Positions 7,481 through 44,386 of a DNA stretch of 47,759 nt are shown in pieces. The notes under the pieces were generated by a model. The model did no database searches, was not told the DNA's origin, and saw only the letters and a list, made by a program, of their open reading frames with translations. The translations under genes were made by a program, and so were the position numbers. The DNA is from Actinomycetota bacterium. GTDB lineage: Bacteria; Actinomycetota; Acidimicrobiia; Acidimicrobiales; BP-101. The stretch spans positions 1 through 47,759 of the forward strand of contig JAUTXA010000070.1 in the NCBI GenBank assembly GCA_030838265.1, given 5' to 3'. Numbering within the stretch: the stretch's first letter is position 1; each line of letters begins with the position of its first letter.

Positions 7481-8202
7481 AGGCGCTGCTGGCCCAAGCC
7501 CGCGCCGAGGTCGCCATGACCTTGCGCCGGGGCGAGTCCCTGCTGCTGGCCCTCGGGATCCCCGTGATCCTCCTGGTCTTCTTCTCGGTCGTCGACATCC
7601 TCCCCACCCCGGCCGGGACCAAGCGCGCCGTCGACTTCCTCGCTCCCGGGATCCTGGCCCTCGCCGTGATGTCGACGGGCATGGTCAGCCTCGGCATCGC
7701 CACTGCGTTCGAGCGTCAGTACCTCGTCCTCAAGCGGCTGGGCTCGACCCCGCTCGGTCGACCCGCTCTGCTGGCGGCCAAGACGGGAGCCGTCGTCGTC
7801 GTCGAGCTGGTGCAGGTGATCGCCCTCACCGCGGTCGCATTGGCGCTGGGGTGGCGCGCCCACCCCTCGGCGGCGACCGCGGTGGCGGCCGTCATCGTCG
7901 CCACCGTCGCGTTCAGCGGGCTCGGGCTGCTCATGGCCGGCACCCTGAAGGCCGAGCTGACTCTGGCCGCGGCCAACGGCCTCTACCTCGTGCTCCTGCT
8001 GCTCGGCGGCATGGTCGTCCCTTTGTCCCGGCTTCCCGGCGGGCTGCGCGCCCTGGCCCGCCTCCTTCCCGCCGCCGCCCTCTCGGACGTCCTCCGCCAA
8101 GGCTTGGGCGGACCGTCGGCTTACCGCGGGGCTTGGCTGGTGCTGGTCGCGTGGGCCGTCGTCGCCCCGGTGGCCGCCGCCCTCACGTTCCGCTGGGAGT
8201 GA
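7477..8202 (+). CDS. ABC-2 type transporter permease
   Basis: GTG at 7477 overlaps the ATPase TGA (GTGA). 241-aa, six-TM hydrophobic protein typical of ABC-2 permeases. Confidence 0.8.
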   Translation: MKALLAQARAEVAMTLRRGESLLLALGIPVILLVFFSVVDILPTPAGTKRAVDFLAPGILALAVMSTGMVSLGIATAFERQYLVLKRLGSTPLGRPALLAAKTGAVVVVELVQVIALTAVALALGWRAHPSAATAVAAVIVATVAFSGLGLLMAGTLKAELTLAAANGLYLVLLLLGGMVVPLSRLPGGLRALARLLPAAALSDVLRQGLGGPSAYRGAWLVLVAWAVVAPVAAALTFRWE

Positions 8203-8211
8203 CCGCGGCCG

Positions 8212-8694
8212 TCAGCGGGCTGACGCCAGCAGCGCGGCGAGATCCTTGGCGTGCAGCTCACCCAGATGCCGACCCGTCACCTTGCCGCTCGGCGAGATGA
8301 CCACGGTGACGGGAACGCCCTGGCCGATGCCGTAGGCCCGCAGCAGTCTGCCGCTCGGGTCCTTGAGGGCGGGCCAGGTGGCGTGCTCAGCCCGCATGAA
8401 GTCGGACGCCGGGACATCGCCGTCGCGGACGATGACCCCGAGCACGGCGACCGAGCCGTGATTGGCGGTCCGGAGCAGCGGGAACTCGCGCCGGCAGGGC
8501 TCGCACCACGAGGCCCAGAAGTTGAGCAAGACGGTCCGGCCCCGGTACCCGGCCAGCGCGACCCGTTTTCCGTCGAGGCTCTCGGCCACGAAGACGGGCG
8601 CGGGCTGGCCCACCGCCCCCGGGCTGGGCTTTGACGAGTCGGTGATGATGACGAGGCCGATGATGATGGCGATGGCCACCACCGCGCCGGCCAC
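8212..8694 (-). CDS. membrane-anchored TlpA/ResA-like thiol:disulfide oxidoreductase
   Basis: N-terminal TM (AGAVVAIAIIIGLVIIT). Thioredoxin fold with WASWCEPCRREFP (CxxC). Last gene of the oxidase operon. Confidence 0.8.
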   Translation of the reverse strand: MAGAVVAIAIIIGLVIITDSSKPSPGAVGQPAPVFVAESLDGKRVALAGYRGRTVLLNFWASWCEPCRREFPLLRTANHGSVAVLGVIVRDGDVPASDFMRAEHATWPALKDPSGRLLRAYGIGQGVPVTVVISPSGKVTGRHLGELHAKDLAALLASAR

Positions 8695-8711
8695 GGCGAC
8701 CAGGGTGCGCT

Positions 8712-9581
8712 TCAGGGGATCGGGTTCGTCTGGGCCAGCTCACGCTCGACGTCGGCCCAGGTAAGGGTGGCGGGGTCGCCCTGCTGCGACTGGCCGTACC
8801 ACTTGAAGAAGGTGATGAAGATGAGCGTCCAGAGGATGATCCCGCCGCCGACCTTCATCATGGCCCCCGCCAGCTGCTGATCATCGAGGACGCCGAGGGC
8901 GAACGGCCGCGGGACGTGGCCGTAGAACTTGTAGACGGGGTGCTCGGCGAAGGTGAGGAACGATGCCGGGACGGTGGGGATCAGCGACTGCAGGAAGAGG
9001 TACACCATCCGCATCGGGTACCCGAGCCGAGGCAGCTCGGGCAGGAGGTTGAAGACCGGCAACCACATGAGCATGGCGGTGCTGAACGACAGGAGGTGCA
9101 CACCGAAGTGGAGCGGCTCGCTGCGTAGGGCGGCGTCGACCAGGGCGGGCCAGTGGGTGAAGGCCAGGACCACGTTGAAGATGACGCCGGCCGCGATGGG
9201 GCGTCCCAGCCGGCGCACGACGGCGTAGACCCGGGGCGGGCGTACGACCAGCCACCGGACCAGCCAGTCCGGCGTGCCGCGGATGAGCAGCGGCGGCGCC
9301 ACGAGGGTCATGACCATGTGCTGGAACATGTGCACGCTGAACAGGTAGCGCTCGGCGATGTCGTGGATGGGCCACTCCGACACGGCCCAGAGGAGCACGA
9401 CGCCCGTGAGGAAGACCGCGACCTGACGCCGGGTTGCGATCGCCTCGCCGGGCCCGACGAGGCGGGTGCCCAGCCGCCGCAGGGCCGTGAAGTAGAGCCC
9501 GAGGACGGTGACGAAGAGGATGGCCACCTCGGGGTGAGCGTGCCAGGCCCAGGGGTCGACGGCCCGAGTGGCGGCCAGCAC
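8712..9581 (-). CDS. ctaG: cytochrome c oxidase assembly factor CtaG (Bacillus caa3_CtaG type)
   Basis: C-terminal 289 aa of track ORF 8712..10103. In-frame GTG at 9581, 2 nt after the subunit IV stop. Polytopic, with HMFQHMVMTLVAPPLL and HFGVHLL motifs typical of the family. Confidence 0.75.
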   Translation of the reverse strand: MLAATRAVDPWAWHAHPEVAILFVTVLGLYFTALRRLGTRLVGPGEAIATRRQVAVFLTGVVLLWAVSEWPIHDIAERYLFSVHMFQHMVMTLVAPPLLIRGTPDWLVRWLVVRPPRVYAVVRRLGRPIAAGVIFNVVLAFTHWPALVDAALRSEPLHFGVHLLSFSTAMLMWLPVFNLLPELPRLGYPMRMVYLFLQSLIPTVPASFLTFAEHPVYKFYGHVPRPFALGVLDDQQLAGAMMKVGGGIILWTLIFITFFKWYGQSQQGDPATLTWADVERELAQTNPIP

Positions 9582-9583
9582 GG

Positions 9584-9910
9584 CTAGAAGGCCAGGACGC
9601 CGAGGGTGAACATGACCGCGACGTAGACGGCGGCAGCCAGGATGATCCCGGTGACGAAGAAGCGGCGGAGGACCTTGTTGTCGAACTTGAGGTGCATGAA
9701 GAACATGGCGACCAAGGCGAACTTGGTGGCGGCCAGCACCAGCAACAACGGGTTGGCGGCGCTGCCCAAGCGGTGGGCGTATGAGACCGCCACCTCGATG
9801 GCGGTCAGCACGCCGAGGACGAGGGCGATGATGATGTAGCGGCTCTCGCTGGGGTGGGCGCCATGCTCGCCCGCGCCGTGGACGACCTCGGTGGTTTCGG
9901 TGGTCGTCAA
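9584..9910 (-). CDS. small cytochrome c oxidase subunit IV (prokaryotic COX4 family)
   Basis: C-terminal 108 aa of track ORF 9584..10672. TTG at 9910 overlaps the ctaE TGA (TTGA). Three TM helices and the FFMHLKFD motif. Confidence 0.7.
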   Translation of the reverse strand: MTTTETTEVVHGAGEHGAHPSESRYIIIALVLGVLTAIEVAVSYAHRLGSAANPLLLVLAATKFALVAMFFMHLKFDNKVLRRFFVTGIILAAAVYVAVMFTLGVLAF

Positions 9911-10554
9911 TGGACGTACCCGTGCGTCGGTGATGGGATGAGGTACACGACGGTGAAGAGGATGATCCAGACGACGTCGACGAAGTGCCAGTAAAGGCCC
10001 GCGATCTCGACGACCTCTGACTTCTCCTGCGGGAGCTTGCCGCGGATCGACAGGCTCCAGAGCGACAGCAGCATGACGATGCCGAGGGTGACGTGGACCC
10101 CATGGAAGCCGGTCAACACGAAGAAGCTGCTGCCGAACAGGTTGGTCTTGATGGTCAGCCCCTCGCGGATGAACGAGGTGAACTCGTAGACCTGTCCGGC
10201 AATGAACGACGAGCCCAGGAGGGCGGTCGCGAGGATCCACAACCGGAAGCGGCGGTGGTCGCCCCGCTGGATGGCGGCGAGGGCCAGCACCATGGTGAGC
10301 GAGCTCATGAGCAGCACGAACGAGCTCACTGAGGTGTAGGGGATGTTGTAGATGTCCTTCGGGTACGGGGGCACGACGCTGCGGCCCCGGTACAGGAAGT
10401 AGGTCGAGATCAGGGCCCCGAACAGGAGGCACTCGGACCCGAGGAAGGCCCACATGGCCATCTTCTCGTTGGAGACGCCCGTGTTGGTGACGTGACCGTG
10501 TTCGGGCCCAGGCGCGGCGTGCTCGTCGACGACGGTGGAGGCGTGCTCGGACAT
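9907..10554 (-). CDS. ctaE: cytochrome c oxidase subunit III
   Basis: 215 aa and 5 TM helices. Motifs FFVLTGFHGVHVTLG and GLYWHFVDVVW. GGAGGGGGAG RBS lies inside the ctaD 3' end. Confidence 0.9.
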   Translation of the reverse strand: MSEHASTVVDEHAAPGPEHGHVTNTGVSNEKMAMWAFLGSECLLFGALISTYFLYRGRSVVPPYPKDIYNIPYTSVSSFVLLMSSLTMVLALAAIQRGDHRRFRLWILATALLGSSFIAGQVYEFTSFIREGLTIKTNLFGSSFFVLTGFHGVHVTLGIVMLLSLWSLSIRGKLPQEKSEVVEIAGLYWHFVDVVWIILFTVVYLIPSPTHGYVH

Positions 10555-10556
10555 CG

Positions 10557-12593
10557 CTACTCCCCCTCCTGGCTCGGAGTGGCGTCGGTCGCCGTCGGTT
10601 CGGCCGGCTCGGCGTCGGGCCCGGGGCCCGCACCGAGAGCAGGTGCGGTCGCGCCGACCAGCTCGGCGGCATCGGCCGGGCCGTGATCGTCGTCAGGGTC
10701 GTGGGGCTCAGCCGAGGGTTCGAGGGCCCAGGCGTAGAGGCCGCCGAGGAGCCAGACGGCTCCGAAGATCGCCACCAGCCACACCCGGTAGGTCATGCCG
10801 TACGCCATGATCGGCAGGCCGGTAGCCGCCACCAGTGGGAAGTACGAGGGCGACGGCAGGTGGATGCTGTGGGGGTCGATGTCGCTGGGCGGCGCCTCGC
10901 TCACGGACAGCTTCACCAGGCGACCGCTGTCGTCCTCGGTGTACTTCTGATGCCAGAAGTCGTCGAGGGAGTGGACGACGGGAACCTCGAGGAAGTTGTA
11001 ATCGGGGACGGGCGACGGGAGGGTCCACTCGAGGGTGCGGCCGTCCCACGGGTCATTCGGCGCGCCGACGGGTTGGCGCCGGGTGACGACCAGAGCGTTG
11101 TAGAGGAAGACGAGGACCGAGACCATGATGATGAAGGCGCCGATGGTCGACATCATGTTGAGCCAACCGACCCCGAGGGCCTTGTCGTAGGTGTAGATGC
11201 GCCGGGGCATCCCCTGTAGGCCGATGAGGTGCATGGGGCCGAAGGTGAGGTTGAAGCCGATGAACCACAGCCAGAAGTGGATCTTGCCCAGCCCCTCGTC
11301 GAGCAGACGGCCGAAGACCTTGGGGTACCAGTAGTAGGTGCCGCCCATGATCCCGAACAGAGCGCCGCCGAACAGGACGTAATGGAAGTGGGCCACCACG
11401 TAGTAGGTGTCGGTCTGCTGGCGGTCGTGGGGGGAGACAGCGTGGGTGACGCCCGAGAGGCCGCCAATGGTGAACATGGCCACGAACCCGACCGCGAACA
11501 GCATGGCCGTCGTGAACTTGATCGAGCCGCCCCACATGGTGCCGATCCAGTTGAAGATCTTCACCCCCGTGGGCACGGCGATGAACATGGTCGAGATCGA
11601 GAAGGCCGAGACGGCAACAGGGCCGAGGCCGGTGGCGAACATGTGGTGCACCCACACGCCCCATCCCATGAAGCCGATGGCCACGCCCGAGATCACCATG
11701 ACCGGATACCCGAACAACGGCTTTCGGGAGAACACGGGGAGGATCTCCGAGACCATGCCCATGGCTGGCAGGATGAGGATGTACACCTCTGGGTGACCGA
11801 AGAGCCAGAACAGGTGCTGCCACAGCAACGGGTCACCGCCCGCCGCTGGGTTGAAGAAGTTGGCCCCGAAGAGACGGTCGAACATCAGCAGGAACAGGGC
11901 CACGGTGATGATCGGCATGGCGAACATCATCAGGAATGATGTGACAAGGGCCATCCAGATGAAGATCGGCATCTTCATCAACGTCATGCCCGGGGCCCGC
12001 ATGTTGAGGATGGTGATGATGAAGTTGATCGAGCCGACCGTCGAGGCGATGCCGAGGATCTGCAGCCCAAAGACCCAGAAGTCGATGTTGTGGCCGGGCG
12101 AGAAGGTGATGCTGGTGTTCGGGGCGTAGCCGAACCACCCACCGTTCGGTGCCCCGCCCAGGACGAAGCTCGAGTTGATGAACAAGGCGCCGCAGAGGAA
12201 AGTCCAGTAGCTGAATGCGTTCAGCCGAGGGAAGGCGACGTCGCGAGCGCCGATCATCAGCGGGATCAGGTAGTTGAAGAAGGCCGTGGTGATCGGCATG
12301 ACGACGAGGAAGATCATCGTCGTGCCGTGCATGGTGAAGACCTGGTTGTAGGCGTCGGCGGAAAGGATGGTGCCGTTGGGCTGGGCCAGCTGCAGCCGGA
12401 TGAGCAGGGCCTCGGAGCCGCCCACGAGGAAGAAGATGAAGGCGGTGACGCCGTAGAGGATGCCGATCTTCTTGTGGTCGACGGTCGTGACCCAGCCCCA
12501 GAACCCGGTTGTCGCCTTGGGCCGGCGCATGAGAGCCGGCTCGCGGGGCACGGGTGTCGCTTCGATGGTGGTGGGCTCGAGGACGGTTGCCAT
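10557..12593 (-). CDS. ctaD: cytochrome c oxidase subunit I (A-type), with a C-terminal two-TM and acidic tail extension
   Basis: All canonical ligand motifs present: TMHGTTMIF, WLFGHPEVYILILP, VWVHHMFATG, VAHFHYVLFGG, GMPRR. ATG start with GGAG RBS. Confidence 0.95.
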   Translation of the reverse strand: MATVLEPTTIEATPVPREPALMRRPKATTGFWGWVTTVDHKKIGILYGVTAFIFFLVGGSEALLIRLQLAQPNGTILSADAYNQVFTMHGTTMIFLVVMPITTAFFNYLIPLMIGARDVAFPRLNAFSYWTFLCGALFINSSFVLGGAPNGGWFGYAPNTSITFSPGHNIDFWVFGLQILGIASTVGSINFIITILNMRAPGMTLMKMPIFIWMALVTSFLMMFAMPIITVALFLLMFDRLFGANFFNPAAGGDPLLWQHLFWLFGHPEVYILILPAMGMVSEILPVFSRKPLFGYPVMVISGVAIGFMGWGVWVHHMFATGLGPVAVSAFSISTMFIAVPTGVKIFNWIGTMWGGSIKFTTAMLFAVGFVAMFTIGGLSGVTHAVSPHDRQQTDTYYVVAHFHYVLFGGALFGIMGGTYYWYPKVFGRLLDEGLGKIHFWLWFIGFNLTFGPMHLIGLQGMPRRIYTYDKALGVGWLNMMSTIGAFIIMVSVLVFLYNALVVTRRQPVGAPNDPWDGRTLEWTLPSPVPDYNFLEVPVVHSLDDFWHQKYTEDDSGRLVKLSVSEAPPSDIDPHSIHLPSPSYFPLVAATGLPIMAYGMTYRVWLVAIFGAVWLLGGLYAWALEPSAEPHDPDDDHGPADAAELVGATAPALGAGPGPDAEPAEPTATDATPSQEGE

Positions 12594-12610
12594 TCAGCGT
12601 TCTCCGTACA

Positions 12611-13651
12611 TCACTTGAGGCTGTCGAGGTAGGCGATGAGCTTGGTGATCTCGTCCTCGCTCAGGTGCAGATTCGGCATGCCCAGCCCCTTGTTGGGGTT
12701 CATCGGCTTCATGGCGGGCGGGTTGCGCAGCCACTTGCGGAGCATCTCGTCGTTGTTGTCGAAGATGTAACCGGCGAAGCGCGCTCGGGAGTTGAAATGG
12801 GTCAGGTTCGGGCCTACGAGACCGGCACTGTACCCGTCGACCGTGTGGCAGCCGCTGCAGCCCTTGGACCGGAACAGGGCGGCCCCGGCGGCGGCGTCAC
12901 CCGTCACCGGGAGAGCGGCTGCCGTGGTCTGGTCGGCCACCCATGTGTCGAAGTCGGCCTGGCTGTCGGCAATCACCCGAAGGCGCATGTTGGCGTGCGA
13001 CAGCCCGCAGAACTCGGCGCATTGGCCGAAGAAGTTCCCGGGGGCGTCGGCCTCGATGACCATGTGATTGGTGCGGCCGGGGATGACGTCGACCTTGCCC
13101 GCCAGCTTCGGAGGCCAGAAGGAGTGGATGACGTCGGTCGAGGTCATCTTGATGGCGACCTTCTTGCCCGCCGGGATGTGCAGCTCGTTGGCCGTGGTGA
13201 TCTTGTACTGGGGATACTTGAACTCCCACCACCACTGGTGGCCGATCACGTCGACCTGGACGACGTCGGGTCCCTTGGGCTGCTGGTCGAGGAAGAACAG
13301 GTTGGCCAGGGTGAAGATGCCGACGCCGAGCAGGAGGACGGCGGGGACGACCGTCCAGGTCAGCTCGAGCTTGGCGCTGCCGTGGACCTGCACCGGCGCC
13401 TCGTCGTCGGAGCGACGGCGGAAGCGGATGGCGGCGTAGATGACGAGGCCCTGCACCAGGACGAAGAAGAAGGCGGCGATGAGGAAGACGGGGTTGATCA
13501 GGTGCTCGAGCCGCCGGGCAATCGGTCCCTGAGGATGGCTGAGCACGTCCTGAGGCATCGTCTCCCGGGCGCAGCCCGTGGCGAGGAGCAACAGGGCGAG
13601 CACGGCGGCGCCGAGCCGGGCGCGGCGCGCGGGCGTGGGGGACAACCTCAT
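12611..13651 (-). CDS. ctaC: cytochrome c oxidase subunit II with fused C-terminal cytochrome c domain (caa3 type), lipoprotein
   Basis: C-terminal 346 aa of track ORF 12611..14407. Lipobox LLATGC. CuA motif HSFW...CAEFCGLSHANM. Heme c motif CSGCH. The ATG overlaps the stop of the upstream cupredoxin gene. Confidence 0.9.
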   Translation of the reverse strand: MRLSPTPARRARLGAAVLALLLLATGCARETMPQDVLSHPQGPIARRLEHLINPVFLIAAFFFVLVQGLVIYAAIRFRRRSDDEAPVQVHGSAKLELTWTVVPAVLLLGVGIFTLANLFFLDQQPKGPDVVQVDVIGHQWWWEFKYPQYKITTANELHIPAGKKVAIKMTSTDVIHSFWPPKLAGKVDVIPGRTNHMVIEADAPGNFFGQCAEFCGLSHANMRLRVIADSQADFDTWVADQTTAAALPVTGDAAAGAALFRSKGCSGCHTVDGYSAGLVGPNLTHFNSRARFAGYIFDNNDEMLRKWLRNPPAMKPMNPNKGLGMPNLHLSEDEITKLIAYLDSLK

Positions 13652-14655
13652 CGGATGACGAACTCGCCCTTCATCGAGGAGTGGAAGTCGCAGACGTACA
13701 CGTAGGTGCCGGGACCAGGCGTGGTGAAGCGATACACCGCCCGGCCGTGGTCGATGGGCCGGCCGTTGAAGATGGGCTTCCCCTTGGTGTCCTGGCTCGT
13801 GTACACGGCCCAGTTGTGGAATGTGCCGGTGTCCTTGTTGGTGAAGTCGACCTCGACCTGCTCGTCGGCGGCGAAGGTGATCACGGCGTCGCTGGGCACC
13901 ACGAAGGCCGTGTTCAGAGCGACGACATCCTGCTCCGGGGTCTCGACCTTGTGCTCGTTGACGATCTTGCGCTCGCCGGCGGCGGCGAAGCTCACTCCGG
14001 CCACGGCCACCACGACGAAGGCGGCGGCCGCGAAGCCCGTCAACGCCGCGGAGGTGAGGCGGGGTCGAGCCGCGATCACAAAGAAGGTGGTGAGGACCAG
14101 CGCGCCCACAACGATGAACGTCACCGTGGCGGCCTGTTCGGGGATGTGGAGCAGGACGCGGGAGACGCCGATGGCGATGAAGGCGGCGACGAGGAAGGCG
14201 CCGACCGGGAGGGCGACGGGGGCCACCAGGCGGTTGCCCACCGCAGCGCTGTTCCGAGGGGTGAAGCTGTGGTGCTCCCGCCAGGCCTGACCTGTCCAGC
14301 CCAGACCGGCGATGAAGGCGATGATGAGCCCGGCGATCAGGGCCGGAGCACCAACGACCGTCGTCACAGCCAGCACGGCGGCCGAGGCGGCGAGGACAAG
14401 GGGCCACGGGCTGGCGCCGGCCGCCGCGGTCGGAGACACCGGGCGACGGTCGGGGGGCGCATCGGCGGTGACGTAGGGCTCGAGGTCCTGGCCCGCCGTC
14501 GCCGTCACGGCCAAGGCGATCACCAGAGCACCGAGGGCCAGACCGAAGAAGATCAGCTCACCCTGTCGGTCGCCAGTCGTCGCCCGGTAGCCCAGGGCGG
14601 TCGCCAAAGCGAAGCCGGCGAGGGCGAAGTAGAGCTTGCTGGCGAGGCTGAACAA
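13648..14655 (-). CDS. polytopic (about 7 TM) membrane protein with C-terminal type-1 (blue) copper cupredoxin domain
   Basis: C-terminal 335 aa of track ORF 13648..15261. TTG at 14655 is preceded by GGGAG at 7 nt. Amicyanin/halocyanin-like ligand pattern FHNW ... YVCDFHSSMKGEFVI (H280, C322, H325, M328, numbered from the TTG). Confidence 0.7.
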   Translation of the reverse strand: MFSLASKLYFALAGFALATALGYRATTGDRQGELIFFGLALGALVIALAVTATAGQDLEPYVTADAPPDRRPVSPTAAAGASPWPLVLAASAAVLAVTTVVGAPALIAGLIIAFIAGLGWTGQAWREHHSFTPRNSAAVGNRLVAPVALPVGAFLVAAFIAIGVSRVLLHIPEQAATVTFIVVGALVLTTFFVIAARPRLTSAALTGFAAAAFVVVAVAGVSFAAAGERKIVNEHKVETPEQDVVALNTAFVVPSDAVITFAADEQVEVDFTNKDTGTFHNWAVYTSQDTKGKPIFNGRPIDHGRAVYRFTTPGPGTYVYVCDFHSSMKGEFVIR

Positions 14656-14666
14656 GGACCGGCTCC

Positions 14667-15251
14667 CTACTTGTGCTGGAAGACGTAGAGGGCGAAGAAG
14701 GCGAGGACGAAGCTGGCCACGACGAAGTGCCAATACCACGTGGCGGCCCGAGCCAGCTCGGGGTCGCCCGTCGTGACCTGATGGGCCAGCGTGCGGCTCA
14801 AGGCCACCACGATGACGATGAGGCCGATGAAGATGTGCACGCCCATGGCGATGAGCAGGGCCCAGAACATCGTCCCGTAGGCATGGGTCGCGGGGCCGAA
14901 GCCGAGGCGGTTGCCCACGTACCAGACGAGGTTGAGTGACGAGAGGGCGAACACGATCGTCAGCACCGAGCCCGTGATCGACTGGCTGCGGTTGCCCTTC
15001 GCCAGCGAGAACGCCGCCCACTCGGCCGTGAAGGCCGACATGAGCATGGTGACGACGAGCATGCTGCCCGGGTAGTTGTCGAGCTTGACGCCCTTCGGCG
15101 GCCACGTCTTGGCCAGGGCCCGGGCATCGAAGTAGACGGCGAACAGAGCGACGAAGGCGACCAGGCTTGCCGCGCCCAGGAGCAACATGGCCAGGTTCAC
15201 CAGGTTCCGGGGGCGATCGTGGCCGGCTGCCGGCAGCGCCAGCTGCGACAT
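14667..15251 (-). CDS. heme-copper oxidase subunit III-like paralog
   Basis: C-terminal 194 aa of track ORF 14667..15740. The ATG overlaps the stop of the upstream gene (ATGA). Five TM helices. Matches the CtaE in this window: FWALLIAMGVHIFIG versus FFVLTGFHGVHVTLG, and ATWYWHFVVASF versus GLYWHFVDVVW. Confidence 0.75.
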   Translation of the reverse strand: MSQLALPAAGHDRPRNLVNLAMLLLGAASLVAFVALFAVYFDARALAKTWPPKGVKLDNYPGSMLVVTMLMSAFTAEWAAFSLAKGNRSQSITGSVLTIVFALSSLNLVWYVGNRLGFGPATHAYGTMFWALLIAMGVHIFIGLIVIVVALSRTLAHQVTTGDPELARAATWYWHFVVASFVLAFFALYVFQHK

Positions 15252-16888
15252 CAGGCGGCACCTCCCGTCGGGGCCGAGCGCACGTCGAGCAGCGGTGTCT
15301 CCGACCGCACCTCGGGAATGAAGTCGAAGTTGTGGGCGGGCGGCGGCGACGAGGTTGCCCATTCGAGGGTCAGTCCCTCCCACGGGTCGTCCTCCGCGAC
15401 CTCGCCCCGGCCCATGGCCACGCTCGTCAGCAGGTTGACGAGGAAGAGCAGGGCTCCCACCGCGACGAGCACGCCACCCGCCGACGCCAGTCTCTCGAGG
15501 TTCACCCAGCCGCCCTTGGGCCCGGTGTCGGCCACGTGCCAGGGGGCGCCGTCGTAGCCCAGCAGGTAGGAGGCCAGACCCATGATCAGGAACCCGCCGA
15601 CGAGGGCCAAGGCCTGGAGGATGCCGATGCCCTGGTTGAGGTGGCGGCCCCAGAGCTTGGGGGCCCAGTGGTAGACGGCGGCGAAGGCCAACAAGGTGGG
15701 GGCGCCGAAGATGACCACGTGGAGGTGGCCGGTCGACCACGCCGTGCCGCCGTCGACCTTATTGATGGCGGCGACGGCAACGTTGGCCGCCCCGAAAAGG
15801 AGGAGAGCCAGGGCACACGCGACGTAGACGAGCGTGACGTGCAGCCGCACATCGCCGAAGCGCAGGGTGCCGAGCCAGACCAGTGCGATCACCGCCACCG
15901 GGAGCGCGACCAGGCCGGTGAGGCCGGAGTAGGTCGGCAGGACAACCGAGCTCTGGACGGACATGCCGGCCGCCAACGACCCCAGCGAGAGCACGGCGAA
16001 GGCGGCGATCGAGATGCGCACCGGCATCGAGGCCAACAGGCCACGCCGGGCGTGGGTCGTGACGATGTCGCTGGCCGCCCCGAGGGCCGGGAGCAGCAGC
16101 AAGAAGGCGTCGGGCCGCCCGAACAGCCAAAGCGTGTGCTGCCACGTGATCTGGGCGACCGGGTTGGTCGGGGCGAAGAACGATCCGCCGAAGTGCTGGT
16201 CGAGGTAGAGAAGGAGGAGCCCGGCCACGAACACCGGCGTGGTCAGGAGGCTGATGGTCGCCGTCCACAGGGTCGCCCACGTGAACAGGGGCAGGCGGCC
16301 GAACGTCATGCCTTCGGTGCGGAGCAAGGCGATGGTCACGATCAGGTTCGCCGAGGCCAGCAACGTGGCGATGGCGAGGATGATCAGCCCGGCGATCAGG
16401 AGGTTGGTGCCGTGGTTGGCCGGCCCCTGGGCGGTGATCGGAGTGCTGAGACCCAAGCCCATCCCGGCCGGCCGGTCGACGATGTAGGCGGCGACGACCA
16501 CGCCGCCGCCGGCCAGGAACGACCAAAAGGCGGCCGCCTGGAGGCGAGGCAGAGCCAGGCGGGGAGCCCCGATCTGCAACGGGACGAGATAGGTGGCCAG
16601 CCCGAGCCAGAGCGGCGAGAGGAAGAGCATGGTCATGACCGTGGCGTGCATCGACAGGATGCGGCCGTAGTCGTTGCCCACGATCTGGACGCCCTGCCCG
16701 GCCAGCTCGATGCGCATGACCACGCCAAGGGTCACGCCGACCAGCAGGAACACGATCGAGGCCCCCAGGTAGAGGAGGCCAACCCGCTTGTGGTCAGCGG
16801 TCGTCAGCCAGTTGCCACGGGCCACCGACTGGGGTGCACCGGGCGCCTGGTTCTCGATGTGGTCGGGACGCGTCTCGGTGAGCGTCAT
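15251..16888 (-). CDS. heme-copper oxidase subunit I-like paralog lacking the CuB ligands
   Basis: 545-aa, 12-TM ORF with ATG and AGGAAGG RBS. Aligns by eye with CtaD along its length (WLTTADHKRVGLLY, SMHATVM, WQHTLWLFGRPDAFLLLLP, GHLHVVIFG, DPWEGLTLEW). The canonical HPEVY is RPDAF, and no HH pair is present in helix VII. Confidence 0.8.
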   Translation of the reverse strand: MTLTETRPDHIENQAPGAPQSVARGNWLTTADHKRVGLLYLGASIVFLLVGVTLGVVMRIELAGQGVQIVGNDYGRILSMHATVMTMLFLSPLWLGLATYLVPLQIGAPRLALPRLQAAAFWSFLAGGGVVVAAYIVDRPAGMGLGLSTPITAQGPANHGTNLLIAGLIILAIATLLASANLIVTIALLRTEGMTFGRLPLFTWATLWTATISLLTTPVFVAGLLLLYLDQHFGGSFFAPTNPVAQITWQHTLWLFGRPDAFLLLLPALGAASDIVTTHARRGLLASMPVRISIAAFAVLSLGSLAAGMSVQSSVVLPTYSGLTGLVALPVAVIALVWLGTLRFGDVRLHVTLVYVACALALLLFGAANVAVAAINKVDGGTAWSTGHLHVVIFGAPTLLAFAAVYHWAPKLWGRHLNQGIGILQALALVGGFLIMGLASYLLGYDGAPWHVADTGPKGGWVNLERLASAGGVLVAVGALLFLVNLLTSVAMGRGEVAEDDPWEGLTLEWATSSPPPAHNFDFIPEVRSETPLLDVRSAPTGGAA

Positions 16889-16965
16889 CGGCCTTCCTGA
16901 AGAGGCGGACAGGGCGGCAGCACTCTAGACACCACCGGCGCTCGGTTTCGACTTCGCTCCGTGCC

Positions 16966-17853
16966 TCATCGGACGAGCTGGTCGACAGCCATGGCCGCGA
17001 AGAGCAGGGTCACGTACGAGATGGAGTAGCTGAAGAGGCGCATGGCCTGCTTCGGGGTGGCCGTGCGCTGGAGGCGAACGGCGTACAGGACGAAGATGGC
17101 GCCCAGGATCACAGCCGCTGACGTGTAGATCAGACCCATGCCCGCGATCGGGCTGAAGATCAGCGAGGTGGCCCACAGGATGACCGTGTAGATCACGATC
17201 TGGCGGGCGGTGCGGGCGAAGGTGGCCACCACCGGCAGCATGGGGACCTCGGCCGCCGCGTAGTCCTCGCGGTAGCGGATGGCCAGGGCCCAGAAGTGGG
17301 GCGGCGTCCAGACGAAGATGATGGCGAAGAGCACGAGTGGGGCCAGTGACAGCGAGTTGCGCACCGCGGCCCACCCCACGAGGACCGGTACGGCGCCGGC
17401 GGCGCCGCCGATGACGATGTTGTGGGTGGACGTGCGCTTGAGCCACAGGGTGTAGACGAACACGTAGAAGAGGGTGGCGCTGAGGGCGAGGATGGCGCTG
17501 AGGAAGTTCACGAGCAGCCAGAGCTCAACGAAGGCGGCGATTTCGAGGGCGATGGCGAACACCAACGCCGGTGTCGGCTCGAGTGCACCCGTCACGAGGG
17601 GCCGGCCCTGCGTCCGCTTCATGAGCTTGTCGATGTCGCGATCGACGTACATGTTGATGGCGTTGGCACCGCCCGCCGCGAGGGTGCCCCCGACGAGGGT
17701 GACGAGCATGAGCCACAGCGATGGCAGACCCCGCTTGGCCACGACCATGGTCGGCAGCGTGGTGACGAGCAGAAGCTCGATGATGCGGGGCTTGGTGAGC
17801 GCCACATAGGCCGACAGGCGGCTGGAGATCGCAGGCGCCGCGGTCTGAGACAT
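16966..17853 (-). CDS. ctaB: protoheme IX farnesyltransferase (heme O synthase)
   Basis: 295-aa UbiA-family polytopic protein. Motifs YVALTKPRIIELLLVTT, NMYVDRDIDKLMKRT and WTPPHFWALA. Confidence 0.9.
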   Translation of the reverse strand: MSQTAAPAISSRLSAYVALTKPRIIELLLVTTLPTMVVAKRGLPSLWLMLVTLVGGTLAAGGANAINMYVDRDIDKLMKRTQGRPLVTGALEPTPALVFAIALEIAAFVELWLLVNFLSAILALSATLFYVFVYTLWLKRTSTHNIVIGGAAGAVPVLVGWAAVRNSLSLAPLVLFAIIFVWTPPHFWALAIRYREDYAAAEVPMLPVVATFARTARQIVIYTVILWATSLIFSPIAGMGLIYTSAAVILGAIFVLYAVRLQRTATPKQAMRLFSYSISYVTLLFAAMAVDQLVR

Positions 17854-17900
17854 CGGCGCCGACTCTACGGCTGCCCACCCCCCGGAGCCAAAGCACTCCG

Positions 17901-18878
17901 ATGGCTGGTCAGCGGCGACCCGGCCGTAGCATCGGCGACGCCATGCCCACCCTGACGCCTTCCGCCTTCCGGCGCCTCACCCTGGCGGTCGTCGCCCTGG
18001 TGGCCGTGATCATCGTGACGGGGGCGGCGGTGCGTCTGACCGGCTCTGGTTTGGGGTGCCCCAACTGGCCCACGTGCGACGGTCATCACATCGTCGATCC
18101 AGCGGCCAGTCACAAAGGCATCGAATCGATCAACCGGGCCATCACCGGTCTGGTGTCGGTCGTGGTCATCCTCTCGGTGCTCGGGTCGCTCCGTCGCGTC
18201 CCCCGTCGGCGCGATCTCGTCTGGCTCTCGCTCGGCCTCGTCGCCGGGGTGGTGGCCCAGATCGTCCTGGGCGGACTCGTCGTGATCTTCCACCTCTATC
18301 CGCCGTTGGTGATGGGCCATCTGGTTCTGTCGATGCTGTTGCTGGCCGACGCCGTCGTCCTGCATCACCGAGCGCGGCTTCCTGATGACGAGCCGGTCGG
18401 CCCCGCCGTGGCGGGCGACGTGGCCACGTTGACCAAGCTCTTGGTCGGCTGGGCCGCCCTGGTCATCGTCCTGGGCACTGTCGTGACCGGCGCCGGACCC
18501 CATGCGGGCAGCAACAAGGACCGGCTGGTCGAGCGCCTGCCGATCGCAGTCCACGATGCGGCCCGCTTCCATGGCACCGCGGTCGTCCTCTTCCTGGTGT
18601 TCGTGCTGCTGACCATCTGGCGCCTGCGCGCCGAAGGGGCTCCCCGGTCGGTGCTGGGGCGGGCGGAGCTTCTCCTCGTCGCCCTGGTGACCCAGGCCGC
18701 GGTGGGCTACACGCAGTACTTCACGGGTGTCCCGGTCGTCTTGGTCGGCGTCCATGTGGCCGGCGCCGACGCCGTCTGGGCTGCGGTGCTCTGGCTGGCG
18801 CTGGGGACCAACCAGACGGTCGTGCCAGTGGCGTCGACGCAGGCGAGAGCGACCGGTGAGGTAGCAGTCGCGGGCTGA
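17901..18878 (+). CDS. ctaA: heme A synthase (COX15/CtaA family)
   Basis: Polytopic protein with RLTGSGLGCPNWPTCDG and paired His-containing helices. Divergent from ctaB. The start could instead be the ATG at 17943 (MPTLTPSAF). Confidence 0.85.
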   Translation: MAGQRRPGRSIGDAMPTLTPSAFRRLTLAVVALVAVIIVTGAAVRLTGSGLGCPNWPTCDGHHIVDPAASHKGIESINRAITGLVSVVVILSVLGSLRRVPRRRDLVWLSLGLVAGVVAQIVLGGLVVIFHLYPPLVMGHLVLSMLLLADAVVLHHRARLPDDEPVGPAVAGDVATLTKLLVGWAALVIVLGTVVTGAGPHAGSNKDRLVERLPIAVHDAARFHGTAVVLFLVFVLLTIWRLRAEGAPRSVLGRAELLLVALVTQAAVGYTQYFTGVPVVLVGVHVAGADAVWAAVLWLALGTNQTVVPVASTQARATGEVAVAG

Positions 18879-18893
18879 CAGACTGGCGGGGCC

Positions 18894-19187
18894 ATGACCG
18901 CGCCGATGCCCGTCGAGACCGAGCGCCCCGACGTCGACGAGGTCGTCGAGCCCGACCGGCCCTGGCTGGTCATCGTGTGGAACGACCCGATCAACCTCAT
19001 GTCGTACGTGGCCTTCGTGTTCCAGAAGCTGTTCGGTTACTCGAAGGAGAAGGCCAACAAGCTGATGATGGACGTCCACCTGAAGGGTCGGGCTGTGGTG
19101 TCGAGCGGGACGCGGGAGCGAGCCGAGCTCGACGTCTTCCGCCTCCATGAACACGGCCTCTGGGCGACGATGGAGCAGAGCTCGTGA
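18894..19187 (+). CDS. clpS: ATP-dependent Clp protease adaptor ClpS
   Basis: 97 aa. Diagnostic core [46 protein letters not shown]. Confidence 0.9.
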
Positions 19188-19251
19188 TGCGACCCAATAG
19201 TGCGGAGCAGAGCTCGTGATGCGACCCGATGAAGCAGAGCAGAGCTCATGA
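19172..19251 (+). repeat. 32-bp tandem repeat, about 2.5 copies, spanning the clpS stop and the DUF2017 start
   Basis: GGAGCAGAGCTCGTGATGCGACCC occurs identically at 19172-19195 and 19204-19227. A third partial copy, AGCAGAGCTCATGA, lies at 19238-19251. Period is 32 nt. Confidence 0.85.
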
Positions 19252-19712
19252 GCTTTGTCGGGCCCATCGGGCGGAACCGCGATGGGTCGTTCAAGCTGCG
19301 GCTGGGGCCACAGGAGCGCGAGCTGCTGCGGACACTGCCGGGCCAGCTCCTCGAGCTGTTCGGCAGCGCCGACCCCTCGCTGCGACGCCTCTTCCCACCC
19401 GCCTACACCGATGACGCCGAGCGGGAGGCCGAGTACCAGCGGTTCATGGCCGACGACCTCGAAGCCCGCCACCGGGCCGCCCTTGAGATCCTCGCCAACA
19501 CGGCTGACAACCCCCGCCTCGACGAGGAAGAGCTGACGGCGTGGATGGGCGCCCTCAACGACCTCCGGCTGGTGCTCGGCACCCGCATCGACGTGCAAGA
19601 GGACATGGTCGACATCGACGACGATGATCCCAACGCCCCCGCCCTCCATCTCTATGGGTATCTGACCTACCTGCAGAGCGAGGTCATCGATGCCCTCGCC
19701 AGCGGGCTCTGA
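19248..19712 (+). CDS. DUF2017-like protein (conserved actinobacterial clpS neighbour)
   Basis: 154-aa acidic protein directly after clpS. Sequence (LFPPAYTDDAEREAEYQRF..., WMGALNDLRLVLGTRIDV) matches my recollection of DUF2017. Not verified against a database. Confidence 0.65.
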   Translation: MSFVGPIGRNRDGSFKLRLGPQERELLRTLPGQLLELFGSADPSLRRLFPPAYTDDAEREAEYQRFMADDLEARHRAALEILANTADNPRLDEEELTAWMGALNDLRLVLGTRIDVQEDMVDIDDDDPNAPALHLYGYLTYLQSEVIDALASGL

Positions 19713-19731
19713 CCGGGTAAGGAGGCAAGCC

Positions 19732-21579
19732 ATGTCACGGACACGTCTCTCGTTGTTGGCCATGGCAGTCGTGGCCGCCACTGTTCTGCTACCGGTCGAG
19801 GCGGCCCGGGCGGTGCCGAAGCGGTCGGTGGCCACGAGCGGCTTCGTCCTCAACGGGCGCGGCCAGCTCACCCGGTACGCGGCGGGCGAGTCCACACCCC
19901 CCGGCGTCACCAACGCCCCAACGTGGGGATTCGACATCGCGCGGGGCATCGCTACCTACCAGTCGGGCACCGGCGGCGTCGTCCTCGACGGGTACGGCGG
20001 GGTCCACGGGTTCGGCTTCACCGGCACGGGCCGCGGCGCCGATGCCCGACGCACCCCCTACTGGAACGGCTGGGACATTGCGAGGGGGGTGGCGCTGCTG
20101 CCTGACGGCTCGGGCGGCTATGTCCTCGACGGTTACGGCGGGCTCCACCCCTTTGCCGTCGGCCCGAACGCCGTGCCGCCGCCAGCCAATGGCGGGGCCT
20201 ACTGGAGCGGTTGGGACATCGCCCGCGGCATCGCCCTGCTGCCTGACGGCTCGGGCGGCTATGTCCTCGACGGGTACGGCGGGCTGCACCCGTTCGGCGT
20301 CGGGACCCACGCTCCGGCACCCGCCGCCAGTGGTGGGGCCTACTGGAGTGGGTGGGACGTGGCGTCCGACATCACACTGCTGGCCGACGGCAGCGGCGGG
20401 TACATCCTCGATCGCTACGGGCCCCTCCACGGCTTTGCCACCACCAATCCGGTGGTCCCGGCATCACCCACGACGACCGGCTATCCCGCGGGTGATGCCC
20501 AAGGCGTGGCGACCTACGTCCACCCGACGGCAGCCGCCCCGTCGATCACCGTGACCTCGGCGGTGACAGGCCTCGACATCCCGTGGGATCTGGCCTTCGC
20601 CCCCGACGGCACCATGATCTTCACTGAGCGAGGCGGGCGCCTCAGCGCCCGGGTCGGCACCACCACTGTGATGATGGCCGACGCCCCCAACGTCTATGCC
20701 ACGGGAGAAGCCGGTCTGCTAGGCCTCGCCCTCGACCCCGACTACGCCACCAACCGCCTGCTCTACGCCTGCCAGAGCTACAGCAACGGCTCGACCAACG
20801 ATGTCCGGGTGCTCGTCTGGCACGTGGCCGACGACTATTCGTCGGCCACGGTCGTCACCAACCCACTGGTGGGCGGCCTGCCCCTCAACACCACGACCTT
20901 CCCCGGCCGCCACAGTGGTTGTCGGCCCCGCTTCGGACCCGACGGCTACCTGTGGATCGGCACCGGTGACACCGGCGTCGGCACCAACCCCCAGTCGCTG
21001 ACGTCGCTCGGCGGCAAGGTGCTGCGGGTGAGCAAGACCACAGGCGCGGCCGCGCCCGACAACCCCTTCTCGGGGGCGAGCGCCCGCATCTACAGCTACG
21101 GCCACCGCAACGTCCAGGGCATGGCGTGGCGGCCGGGGACGACACAGATGTTCAACGTCGAGCATGGCCCCGACATCGACGACGAGGTCAACCTCCAGGT
21201 GCGCGGGGCCAACTACGGATGGGACCCCATCCCTGGCTACAACGAGGGCGTCCCCATGACCGACTTCGCCAAGTTCCCCAGCGCGGTCGGCGCGGTCTGG
21301 AGCTCGGGCAGTCCCACGGTGGCCACGTCCGGCGGCACCTTCCTGTCGGGCTCGGCCTGGGGGGCTTGGAACGGCGCTCTCGCCGTGGCCTGCCTCAAGG
21401 GCAGCCAGCTCATGGTGTTCGGGCTCAATCCGGCCGGCACGGTGGTCACGCGGGAGGACAGCGTCATCAAGGACAAGGGCCGGCTGCGCACCCCGGTGCT
21501 CGGACCAGACGGGAATCTCTACATCGCGACCGGCAACGGTGGTGGCAACGACGTGATCTTGAAGGTCGTGCCCGGCTAG
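19732..21579 (+). CDS. secreted PQQ-dependent sugar (glucose/sorbosone) dehydrogenase-like beta-propeller with N-terminal 47-aa repeat array
   Basis: ATG at 19732 with strong AAGGAGG RBS at 19718-19725. Signal peptide MSRTRLSLLAMAVVAATVLLPVEAARA. C-terminal domain carries GSDH-type motifs (LDIPWDLAFAPDG, GEAGLLGLALDPDY, GGKVLRV, YSYGHRNVQGMAW, GPDIDDEVN, GANYGWDP). Confidence 0.8.
   Translation: MSRTRLSLLAMAVVAATVLLPVEAARAVPKRSVATSGFVLNGRGQLTRYAAGESTPPGVTNAPTWGFDIARGIATYQSGTGGVVLDGYGGVHGFGFTGTGRGADARRTPYWNGWDIARGVALLPDGSGGYVLDGYGGLHPFAVGPNAVPPPANGGAYWSGWDIARGIALLPDGSGGYVLDGYGGLHPFGVGTHAPAPAASGGAYWSGWDVASDITLLADGSGGYILDRYGPLHGFATTNPVVPASPTTTGYPAGDAQGVATYVHPTAAAPSITVTSAVTGLDIPWDLAFAPDGTMIFTERGGRLSARVGTTTVMMADAPNVYATGEAGLLGLALDPDYATNRLLYACQSYSNGSTNDVRVLVWHVADDYSSATVVTNPLVGGLPLNTTTFPGRHSGCRPRFGPDGYLWIGTGDTGVGTNPQSLTSLGGKVLRVSKTTGAAAPDNPFSGASARIYSYGHRNVQGMAWRPGTTQMFNVEHGPDIDDEVNLQVRGANYGWDPIPGYNEGVPMTDFAKFPSAVGAVWSSGSPTVATSGGTFLSGSAWGAWNGALAVACLKGSQLMVFGLNPAGTVVTREDSVIKDKGRLRTPVLGPDGNLYIATGNGGGNDVILKVVPG
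19924..20440 (+). repeat. in-frame 141-bp (47-aa) tandem coding repeats, about 4 copies
   Basis: Protein repeats W(N/S)GWD(I/V)A(R/S)(G/D)(I/V)(A/T)LL(P/A)DGSGGY(V/I)LD(G/R)YG(G/P)LH(P/G)F. The two central copies (about 20062-20202 and 20203-20343) are also near-identical at the DNA level. Confidence 0.8.
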
Positions 21580-42953: not shown

Positions 42954-43093
42954 GCTCGAAGCGTCCGCTTTTTCCGTAGACAGGCAGGAAAGCGCGCTCC
43001 AGGGGACGAATCTACGACCCAGACAGAACGGATGGGCCGACCCTACGGTCCGCCGCTCGGGGCAACGATGCAGCTGGGAAAGGGTTGGGGATC

Positions 43094-44386
43094 ATGACAC
43101 TCACGACGACACAGATCGTCCCCACGCCGGGCCGCCGGGCACGAGCTTCGGCCACGCACAAGATCATCGTGCTGGTGGTGGCCCTGATCGGGTCGCTCGT
43201 CGGGGGAGGCGCCATCGCCCCGGCTCAGGCCAGCGCCGTCTCGCAGCCGTTCACGGCCGCAGGGACAGTGTCAAACGCCAACGCGTCGATCGAGCCCGGG
43301 AACGTCGAGGCCGCCAACGCCGCCTTCGTCCTCAACCCGGTGACCGAGTCCTCGGGCAGCACGTACAAGTACTACGGCGCCGACGGATCGCTCAAGATCT
43401 ACGCCACGCCCAACACGAACTACTACCTGCAAGACGTCGAGGGTAACTACCACCGCTCCGACTACGCCCACGTCGTGGTCCAGGGCCTTCCCGTGCGGGT
43501 CAACGGCGACCGGTACACGGAGAAGACCGGCGTCGAGCACTTCGTCGCCAACTCGGTGTTCAACCCGCCCCCGCCTCCCTCGACGGCGACGGGAGGCAGC
43601 CGCGTCCCCACCTGCGGCAGCGACACCAACCCCTTCCACAACCGCGTTGGCAACTTCGCCCTGGTCGCCAGCATCACGTCGCTGACCGCCCACTACCCCT
43701 GCACCACGACCCCGAAGTACCCGGGCGGCATCGTCCTCGGCAACTTCCAGACGTCGCTGGCCCCGCTCGTCGCCCAGGGCGTCAACGCCTACGGCGGCAG
43801 CAACCTCGAGGTGTACCACACGCCTGCGACGAAGTTCATCTTCGGCGACAAGACCTCGGACTACAACCACGTCGTCAAGCGCGGCCAGCAGGTCTTCGTG
43901 ACCGGCACGTACACCCATGAGTTCGGCAGCTGGCTCTTCTACGCCAAGATCATCTGGACTCCCGGACCTCCCCCCGCCCCGACGGCCACGACCTACTACA
44001 CCGACAGGACCGACATTCGGGCCGCCGCCACCACGGACGGGGCTTGGCAAGGTACGTCGACCACGGCCGACGGACACTTCCCCAACGGCCAGTTCCAGTC
44101 GAACCTGGTGTGGAGCCAGAACGGGACGGACTGGACGGTCAGCGGCACGTGGGTGATCTTCGACGGGAACGGCAACGCCCTGCGCGGCAATCTCACCGGC
44201 TACACCAGTGGCACCTTTCTCGACATGACCTTCGAGATCACCAGTGGTGAGGGCACGCAGATCAACGCCCAAGGTGGTGGCGACCTCAGCGGCACGGTGA
44301 ACCCGAGCCCGCCAGGCATCGCCCCGAGCGCCTTCGAGGGCAAGGCCGTGCTCCAGGAGATCTTCCCGGCCCAAGCCAACGGCTGA
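43094..44386 (+). CDS. secreted or anchored hypothetical protein with internally duplicated domain and poly-Pro linkers
   Basis: ATG at 43094. N-terminal hydrophobic segment HKIIVLVVALIGSLVGGGAIAPAQA. Two related modules, each ending in a PPPPP/PGPPP linker. No catalytic motif recognised. Confidence 0.5.
   Translation: MTLTTTQIVPTPGRRARASATHKIIVLVVALIGSLVGGGAIAPAQASAVSQPFTAAGTVSNANASIEPGNVEAANAAFVLNPVTESSGSTYKYYGADGSLKIYATPNTNYYLQDVEGNYHRSDYAHVVVQGLPVRVNGDRYTEKTGVEHFVANSVFNPPPPPSTATGGSRVPTCGSDTNPFHNRVGNFALVASITSLTAHYPCTTTPKYPGGIVLGNFQTSLAPLVAQGVNAYGGSNLEVYHTPATKFIFGDKTSDYNHVVKRGQQVFVTGTYTHEFGSWLFYAKIIWTPGPPPAPTATTYYTDRTDIRAAATTDGAWQGTSTTADGHFPNGQFQSNLVWSQNGTDWTVSGTWVIFDGNGNALRGNLTGYTSGTFLDMTFEITSGEGTQINAQGGGDLSGTVNPSPPGIAPSAFEGKAVLQEIFPAQANG

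Follow-up and report, generated by a model that had tools for sequence, protein, structure and literature searches.

A selectively maintained CuB-less oxidase-like module within the caa3 oxidase operon of Acidimicrobiales-type Actinomycetota

Why would an operon encoding a terminal oxidase keep an intact paralogue of subunit I that has lost every ligand of the catalytic copper, CuB? The question is raised by a gene, here called COX1', on a 47,759-nucleotide contig stretch of an Actinomycetota bacterium of the order Acidimicrobiales (GenBank assembly GCA_030838265.1, contig JAUTXA010000070.1, positions 1 to 47,759), hereafter the window. An initial annotation, made by eye from the sequence, described COX1' as a live heme-copper oxidase (HCO) subunit I paralogue that keeps its heme histidines and could bind heme, yet can build no binuclear centre. 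Our analysis places the gene in a widespread, selectively maintained dead-oxidase module within the caa3 operon of Acidimicrobiales-type Actinomycetota, the function of which we infer below. The gene and the canonical subunit I gene with which it was compared are the following.

15251-16888, minus strand: COX1', CuB-less and channel-less HCO subunit I paralogue, 545 aa (PF00115, motifs, AlphaFold2 (AF2) model, Foldseek)
10557-12593, minus strand: ctaD, canonical A-family subunit I, 678 aa (COX1, E=1.7e-163)

The coordinates, length and ATG start initially given for COX1' were borne out, with the gene on the minus strand; a plus-strand reading of the same interval was ruled out, as its translation is nonsense. 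The ribosome-binding site AGGAAGG was found as annotated, 4 nt upstream of the start, and the GC content at third codon positions (GC3, 0.92) is normal for real genes here (window GC 68.7%). The overlap with the next gene, a COX3-like gene of 194 aa (14667-15251), was given as ATGA and is actually TGATG, an overlap of 1 nt (15249-15253). COX1' matches the Pfam COX1 profile over positions 1-435 of 436 (PF00115, E=3.7e-72), and its AF2 model, computed from 32 family sequences (pLDDT 85.8, pTM 0.89), is closest in Foldseek to an actinobacterial CtaD (7q21_D, TM 0.87). The protein has both the 12-helix COX1 fold and the full-length PF00115 match of an HCO superfamily subunit I. The annotation had known of no named family for it, and indeed no Pfam or NCBIfam subfamily was assigned: COX1' reaches about half of the cut-offs of TIGR02891 (CtaD_CoxA; 357.4 bits, cut-off 670.75) and NF050116 (cyt_aa3_Actin; 355.6 bits, cut-off 880). 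The CtaD of the window passes TIGR02891 with 725 bits against 670.75.

Residues were compared by BLASTP with the canonical CtaD encoded 2.7 kb downstream (32% identity) and, independently of BLASTP, in phmmer alignments to solved actinobacterial CtaD structures. Every substitution named from the by-eye alignment recurred in both, confirming its register. In helix VI, WLFGHPEVY of CtaD is WLFGRPDAF in COX1' (R258, D260, F262), with the CuB ligand His240 replaced by R258, the cross-link Tyr244 by F262 and E242 by D260 (lost residues in bovine numbering). The His290/His291 pair is Ala/Gly (VWVHHMFA in CtaD, LAAGMSVQ in COX1') and the heme-propionate Arg pair is Trp/His (GLQGMPRR in CtaD, GYDGAPWH in COX1'). 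Beyond the losses initially described, the D-channel Asp (D91) is R110 and the K-channel residues T316/K319 are Val/Ile; the Trp (W126) and Tyr of the GW..Y.P motif are also gone. The elements reported as retained are all present, namely the helix II His (H81; TMHGTTM in CtaD, SMHATVM in COX1'), the helix X H-x-H (H388/H390; AHFHYV in CtaD, GHLHVV in COX1') and the C-terminal motif (NDPWDGRTLEW in CtaD, DDPWEGLTLEW in COX1'). The CtaD of the window holds all six His, the Tyr and the D- and K-channel residues.

Only H81, H388 and H390 remain in COX1' of the six histidines used by HCO classifiers, and the protein lacks the His-Tyr cross-link and D/K channels of A-family O2 reductases. The nitric oxide reductases (NORs) carry, beside a His-ligated high-spin heme, a metal site of three His or, in gNOR, of two His and one Asp; this holds for cNOR, qNOR, eNOR, sNOR, gNOR, bNOR and nNOR, whereas the corresponding residues of COX1' are Arg/Ala/Gly. 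As judged from these positions, COX1' is unable to form a heme-CuB or heme-FeB binuclear centre. With Arg/Ala/Gly at the metal-ligand positions, fixed in its clade, and no proton pathways, it is neither an O2 reductase nor a known type of NOR, in agreement with the initial annotation, and reduction of O2 or NO through any known heme-copper mechanism is excluded on the same residue evidence.

COX1' is not a lone paralogue, but belongs to a conserved set of three genes that make up an oxidase-like module in the caa3 operon, the other two genes being as follows.

14667-15251, minus strand: COX3', short subunit III-like protein of the 5-helix type, 194 aa (PF00510, E=1.3e-16)
13648-14655, minus strand: partner membrane protein, 335 aa, TTG start (Cupredoxin_1, E=9.5e-5)

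The start of COX3' overlaps the stop of COX1' within the TGATG, and the two genes are translationally coupled. Its PF00510 match spans profile positions 76-256, its best NCBIfam match is aa3_CtaE_Actin (55.9 bits, cut-off 190), and every related locus has a COX3-like gene at this place. The partner combines four N-terminal helices resembling actinobacterial subunit IV, three further helices and a C-terminal blue-copper cupredoxin domain, the putative copper ligands of which are H280, C322, H325 and M328 (FH280N...C322DFH325SSM328). This arrangement of His-Asn and Cys-x2-His-x2-Met in a cupredoxin fold is that expected of a type 1 copper site; the four ligands are invariant in the partner alignment and present in 7 of 8 syntenic orthologues. 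Among 15 partner-family members, Cupredoxin_1 (PF13473) was detected in 13, Copper-bind (PF00127, plastocyanin/azurin) in 9 and Cyt_c_ox_IV (PF12270) in 8 (best E=3e-6, residues ~7-120), with one member scoring above the PF12270 gathering score and one showing a faint match to SoxE (PF06525); the partner had no match in NCBIfam. Its AF2 model comprises seven helices and a beta-sandwich at low confidence (pLDDT 54). An hhalign comparison matches the cupredoxin to the CtaC CuA domain (79% probability, E=1.6e-5), with His/Cys/His/Met in register and a 5-residue gap that removes the second Cys; such a register is expected for cupredoxins generally, so descent from subunit II is not proven.

Two other identities were considered for the partner and rejected on hhalign probability: that its 7-helix domain is a degenerate paralogue of CtaG (Caa3_CtaG, 0.2%), and that it is a relative of the COX4_pro-type CtaF (0.8%). 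A 537-aa open reading frame (ORF; 13648-15261, minus strand) is a high-GC shadow frame in which an out-of-frame stretch over COX3' is merged with the real 335-aa partner.

Around the module and ctaD, the operon and its divergent neighbour comprise these genes.

17901-18878, plus strand: ctaA, heme A synthase (COX15-CtaA, E=7.4e-25), divergent from ctaB, position conserved
16966-17853, minus strand: ctaB, heme O synthase (UbiA, E=6.7e-65), directly upstream of COX1'
12611-13651, minus strand: ctaC, caa3-type subunit II with fused cytochrome c (COX2_TM, COX2, Cytochrom_C; lipobox)
9907-10554, minus strand: ctaE, caa3 operon member
~9584-9910, start approximate, minus strand: ctaF, COX4_pro type (Pfam COX4_pro)
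8712 to ~9580, start approximate, minus strand: ctaG (Pfam Caa3_CtaG)
8212-8694, minus strand: Redoxin/TlpA-like gene (Pfam Redoxin)

The ATG of ctaC overlaps the stop of the partner gene (ATGA, 13648-13651), and no terminator-like site was seen across 8000-19000. The window was compared with nine related contigs; the loci are L001, L002, L003, L004, L005, L085, L086, L087, L088 and L089/L090, of which L003 repeats L002 on a short contig and L089/L090 represent one metagenome-assembled genome (MAG) sequence recorded twice. The order COX1'-COX3'-partner is shared by the window and all nine contigs and, where the flank allows, extends to ctaA<>ctaB-COX1'-COX3'-partner-(Redoxin)-ctaC-ctaD-ctaE-ctaF-ctaG. 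The pair ctaA<>ctaB was seen wherever an upstream flank exists (L088 starts inside COX1'), and an intact caa3 ctaD lies just downstream in the window and eight related contigs. The module can be defined as a gene for a CuB-less COX1-fold protein between ctaB and ctaC of a Bacillus-like cta operon, with a COX3-like gene and a gene for a subunit-IV-like polytopic protein after it, and the loci conform to this definition. Three of them were reached from the divergent representatives P0133, P0137 and P0192 (36-41% identity to COX1'), and since the gene order is the same there, the COX1-like genes at these loci are orthologues by position.

In L001 the ctaD is fragmented, with GHPEVY in a 223-codon ORF (15605-16273; ENA ERZ25039489 contig_48917) downstream of an intact COX1'; no ctaD gene was called, reflecting either real loss of the live oxidase or assembly indel errors. 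When a genome collection was scanned with the family alignment, canonical CtaD dominated the matches owing to the common LEWAT..SPP motif; L005 was the sole family member recovered, and no cultured carrier was identified.

A search of 5.8 billion proteins returned 485 homologues of COX1' at E<=1e-20, and the counts that follow are from the best 120 of the 485, which are 50-100% identical and whose named sources are Actinomycetota or Acidimicrobiales MAGs. The CuB His240 column is Arg in 120/120, and the His290/291 pair was found in none. H390 is present in 120/120 and H81 in 119/120, the remaining, partial sequence having a gap there; all 119 full-length members have both residues. The heme a3 His (H388 in COX1') is kept in just 85/120 (71%), being Gln in 21 and Asn in 11, and at the Tyr244 column 107 sequences have Tyr and 13 have Phe. 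R59, the equivalent of the bovine R38 that contacts the formyl group of heme a, occurs in 96 of the 119 full-length homologues, and 57 columns are at least 97% conserved.

Relative to L088, the closest orthologue with DNA, dN/dS is 0.149 for COX1' and 0.135 for COX3', and the partner has a value of 0.32; for the adjacent CtaD it is 0.105. The COX1' ORF is full-length and intact in all 10 loci with DNA, none of which carries the frameshifts or stops that would point to decay. Between the same genome pairs COX1' is 35-59% identical, against 64-76% for CtaD, indicating an evolutionary rate about twice that of CtaD, yet full length is kept. COX1' is a live gene under purifying selection, as the initial annotation had argued from its intact reading frame.

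How far the family extends was assessed by searching 1.84 billion representatives of 50%-identity clusters exhaustively with HMMER; the 150 top matches were taken and 138 near-full-length sequences placed in a tree. About 70 degenerate COX1-like sequences among the 138 representatives form one clade, apart from canonical subunits I, in this rough neighbour-joining tree without bootstrap support. Ligand loss within the family is graded. The representative P0137 (L086) has no heme ligand at all, and its partner still holds the copper ligands. A search from the P0192 branch gave 914 matches at E<=1e-40; among the best 120 of these, 77 have Arg in place of the helix-II His, 70 have Ser for the heme a His and 77 have Val for the heme a3 His, the CuB His240 position is Gln or Thr, and in this branch the partner lacks the cupredoxin (L087, L089). 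Despite these losses, of 51 columns with at least 90% conservation among canonical sequences, 31 persist in both branches; most of these 31 are Pro, Gly, Trp or Arg. The initial statement that the protein keeps its heme histidines is thus correct for the branch of COX1', but does not extend to the family, given their absence from P0137 and their frequent replacement by Arg and Ser in the P0192 branch.

Partly degenerate COX1-like lineages also occur outside the large clade, among or next to canonical sequences (P0238, P0267, P0268, P0224, P0259, P0262; P0153, P0215, P0146; P0184, P0185; P0251, P0176, P0210; P0243, P0255), and in one outside group CuB His290 is Gln and the D-channel Asp is Asn or Gly.

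Does COX1' still carry heme? Both axial His and the formyl-contacting Arg are kept, and H81, H390 and R59 stay together in the branch of COX1' and disappear together from the P0192 branch. That the three are kept or lost as a set is the strongest reason at hand to think that COX1' in this branch probably still holds a low-spin heme A; the missing propionate Arg pair and W126 call for caution. The suggestion in the initial annotation that the protein could bind heme is therefore plausible for this branch and does not describe a family property: since orthologues in other branches lack the heme His, heme binding is not the common denominator of the family.

The module appears, from its sequence relationships, to be derived from an actinobacterial aa3-type oxidase. 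The best solved-structure matches of COX1' are the Mycobacterium and Corynebacterium CtaD of the bcc-aa3 supercomplexes (PDB 6adq, 6hwh, 7q21), with which it has in common the 12-helix fold, ~30-33% identity in Foldseek alignments, the DPW..LEW motif, the low-spin heme His pair, the heme a3 His, and the company of subunit III-like and actinobacterial subunit IV-like partners. Unlike these proteins, COX1' has no CuB ligands, cross-link Tyr, D/K channel, propionate Arg pair or W126 equivalent, and its partner carries a mononuclear H/C/H/M site in contrast to the CuA of the aa3 oxidase. Identity is higher to the aa3-type CtaD of Acidimicrobiales (36-39%; L023, L041, L078) than to the adjacent CtaD (32-33%), and the N-terminus of the partner is of the PF12270 subunit IV type as opposed to the PF03626 type of the caa3 operon itself. 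A tandem duplication of the adjacent caa3 genes is not favoured, as the subunit IV type, the best match of COX3' and the identity pattern all speak against it.

We therefore weigh what a module of this composition might do. At a probability of roughly 0.55, we favour a reading in which COX1' serves as the chassis of an oxidase-like complex that has no catalytic activity of its own, cooperates with the caa3 oxidase and carries a tethered blue copper and, in this branch, a low-spin heme. The module of COX1', COX3' and the subunit-IV-like 7-helix protein with its blue-copper domain would be co-transcribed, and partly translationally coupled, with ctaB and the caa3 oxidase genes, and the three proteins would assemble in the manner of oxidase subunits I, III and IV/II. 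The assembled module could then act as a non-catalytic accessory or structural complex alongside the caa3 oxidase, presenting a membrane-tethered blue-copper electron carrier at the outer face. In the branch of COX1', the subunit would bind one low-spin bis-His heme, probably heme A, either as a structural cofactor or as a short electron relay or buffer beside the copper site. Family-wide its role would be scaffold-like, given the orthologues without heme ligands and the 31 canonical columns that outlast the cofactor ligands in both branches, and the conservation of the partner copper ligands even where COX1' has no heme ligands (L086) is in line with a chassis for a copper carrier. Several points weigh against this reading. 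The AF2 model of the partner is poor (pLDDT 54), and the physical association of module and caa3 oxidase is deduced from operon structure only. COX1' lacks the propionate Arg pair and the W126 equivalent, and 29% of its close relatives also lack the heme a3 His, so that even a low-spin heme is unproven. That Arg258 and Arg110 are absolutely conserved in this branch may point to some specific role for which a pure scaffold gives no explanation, and since the branch of L087 and L089 lacks the cupredoxin, a copper carrier on a chassis would not be the universal function.

The same operon context would suit a role in biogenesis, in which COX1' acts as a scaffold or chaperone holding heme A from CtaA/CtaB, and the partner holds copper, for later transfer to CtaD/CtaC, a Surf1/Sco-like role taken on by a dead paralogue. 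In every locus with an upstream flank COX1' follows ctaB, opposite ctaA, the operon also holds ctaG and a Redoxin/TlpA-like gene, and this branch retains the ligands of the low-spin heme and the Arg at the heme A formyl group. There is also a precedent in Acetobacter, where a ligand-less, "deranged" COX1-like gene is kept with ctaB (Matsutani et al. 2014, BBA 1837:1810, as cited in PMC10715153) and where the account of Degli Esposti et al. 2023 (PMC10715153) proposes a structural role, read as stabilising CtaB. As described there, the Acetobacter protein resembles COX1' in being an intact subunit I homologue minus its metal ligands, with a gene adjoining that for heme O synthase. According to the same account it is alphaproteobacterial, lacks all ligands, and is what remains of a lost cytochrome c oxidase in an organism that went over to a quinol oxidase. 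COX1', compared with it by description only, instead lies next to a caa3 oxidase that is complete and seems functional, has subunit III and IV-cupredoxin partners of its own, keeps heme His in its branch and belongs to a large, diversified actinobacterial clade; the adjacency to ctaB is common to both, and loss of all ligands as described for Acetobacter is found only in orthologues such as P0137. A biogenesis role has difficulty in accounting for the module persisting in branches without heme ligands, some also without the cupredoxin, where canonical cofactor holding is impossible, and a chaperone has no obvious need for its own subunit III and IV equivalents. We consider it an unlikely explanation.

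Three further possibilities concern what the cofactors might do, or whether there is any function at all. In the supercomplex of Sulfolobus SoxM, the sulfocyanin SoxE is a membrane-tethered blue-copper donor to the terminal oxidase, held by a single anchor helix. Like the partner, it is a membrane-anchored cupredoxin encoded with terminal oxidase genes; unlike the partner, it is not paired with a dead subunit I/III chassis, and the likeness is an analogy from genes alone. By this analogy SoxE could serve as a model for how the partner feeds or bridges electrons. A working electron-transfer device derived from a dead aa3 oxidase, in which blue copper and low-spin heme A form a wire or adaptor that docks the Bacillus-like caa3 oxidase to the actinobacterial bcc complex or another donor and replaces a soluble carrier, seems to us a shade more doubtful than the biogenesis role; if true, it would reveal a pseudo-enzyme as building material for a respiratory supercomplex, a mode of construction not known before. 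More improbable than either is a new redox enzyme or electron-transfer complex, in which electrons would run from the blue copper through the low-spin heme to a copper-free high-spin heme with Arg258 in its distal pocket, for chemistry beyond O2/NO (an anionic substrate or peroxide) or for sideways delivery to a neighbouring complex. The near-invariance of Arg258, H81 and H390 in the best 120 homologues, the presence of H388 in COX1' and the invariant type 1 copper ligands of the partner would fit such an enzyme, and the register of the cupredoxin with the CuA domain of CtaC means that its copper could sit above the heme as CuA does. Set against this, the heme a3 His is replaced (Gln, Asn or other) in 35/120 of those homologues, the propionate Arg pair is lost, the loss of both proton channels leaves protons without a known route to a buried active site, and sister branches lose all ligands while the genes are retained. 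Finally, the loss of all catalytic residues and the roughly twofold faster evolution relative to CtaD might be read as signs of a functionless duplicate, a pseudogene in progress. That reading is effectively refuted by the dN/dS of 0.149, the intact ORFs in 10 loci, the 57 strongly conserved columns, the translational coupling of COX1' and COX3', the hundreds of homologues in both searches and the deep monophyletic clade with conserved synteny.

A literature search found no description of an actinobacterial CuB-less COX1-like family or of the three-gene module within the library searched. The standard HCO classifier discarded sequences without six histidines (Sousa et al. 2011, PMC3084760), and a recent survey of new NORs described only families keeping the three-residue metal site (Murali et al. 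2024, PMC11214002). Because HCO surveys filter on six histidines, the clade stayed invisible. Its members are annotated as ordinary "cytochrome c oxidase subunit I" or "cbb3-type subunit I", and inferences of aerobic respiration and oxidase copy number from metagenomes of Acidimicrobiales-type Actinomycetota are inflated as a result. With a whole dead paralogue (I', III' and IV'-cupredoxin) kept under selection inside a live oxidase operon, the module plainly exemplifies a pseudo-enzyme complex of the membrane. The family also offers a natural series of stepwise loss of CuB, heme a3, heme a and the copper domain, useful for establishing the cofactor needs of the COX1 fold and the non-catalytic roles open to oxidase subunits, such as assembly, supercomplex architecture or carrier tethering.

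Some minor features of the neighbourhood were also recorded. The Redoxin/TlpA-like gene (thioredoxin fold) follows ctaG in the window and L088, lies between the partner and ctaC in L001, L085 and L086, and is present as one copy in each of the two positions in L002. A 694-aa ORF (17865-19949, minus strand) is likewise a high-GC shadow frame, antisense to ctaA, ClpS and DUF2017 on the plus strand. In the window a 433-aa ORF (43085-44386, plus strand) has a gene-like GC3 of 0.89 and no Pfam match at E<=1e-4. In the window, where ctaA and the pair lie within 17901-19712 (plus strand), and in every related locus of all family branches, a ClpS/DUF2017 pair stands directly beside ctaA; this neighbourhood is stable, and nothing obvious connects it with oxidase biogenesis. 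Just past DUF2017, the window encodes a 629-aa protein (19690-21579, plus strand) that ends in a glucose/sorbosone dehydrogenase domain of the PQQ type (GSDH, E=1.2e-74); the gene is not conserved at this place in the other loci.

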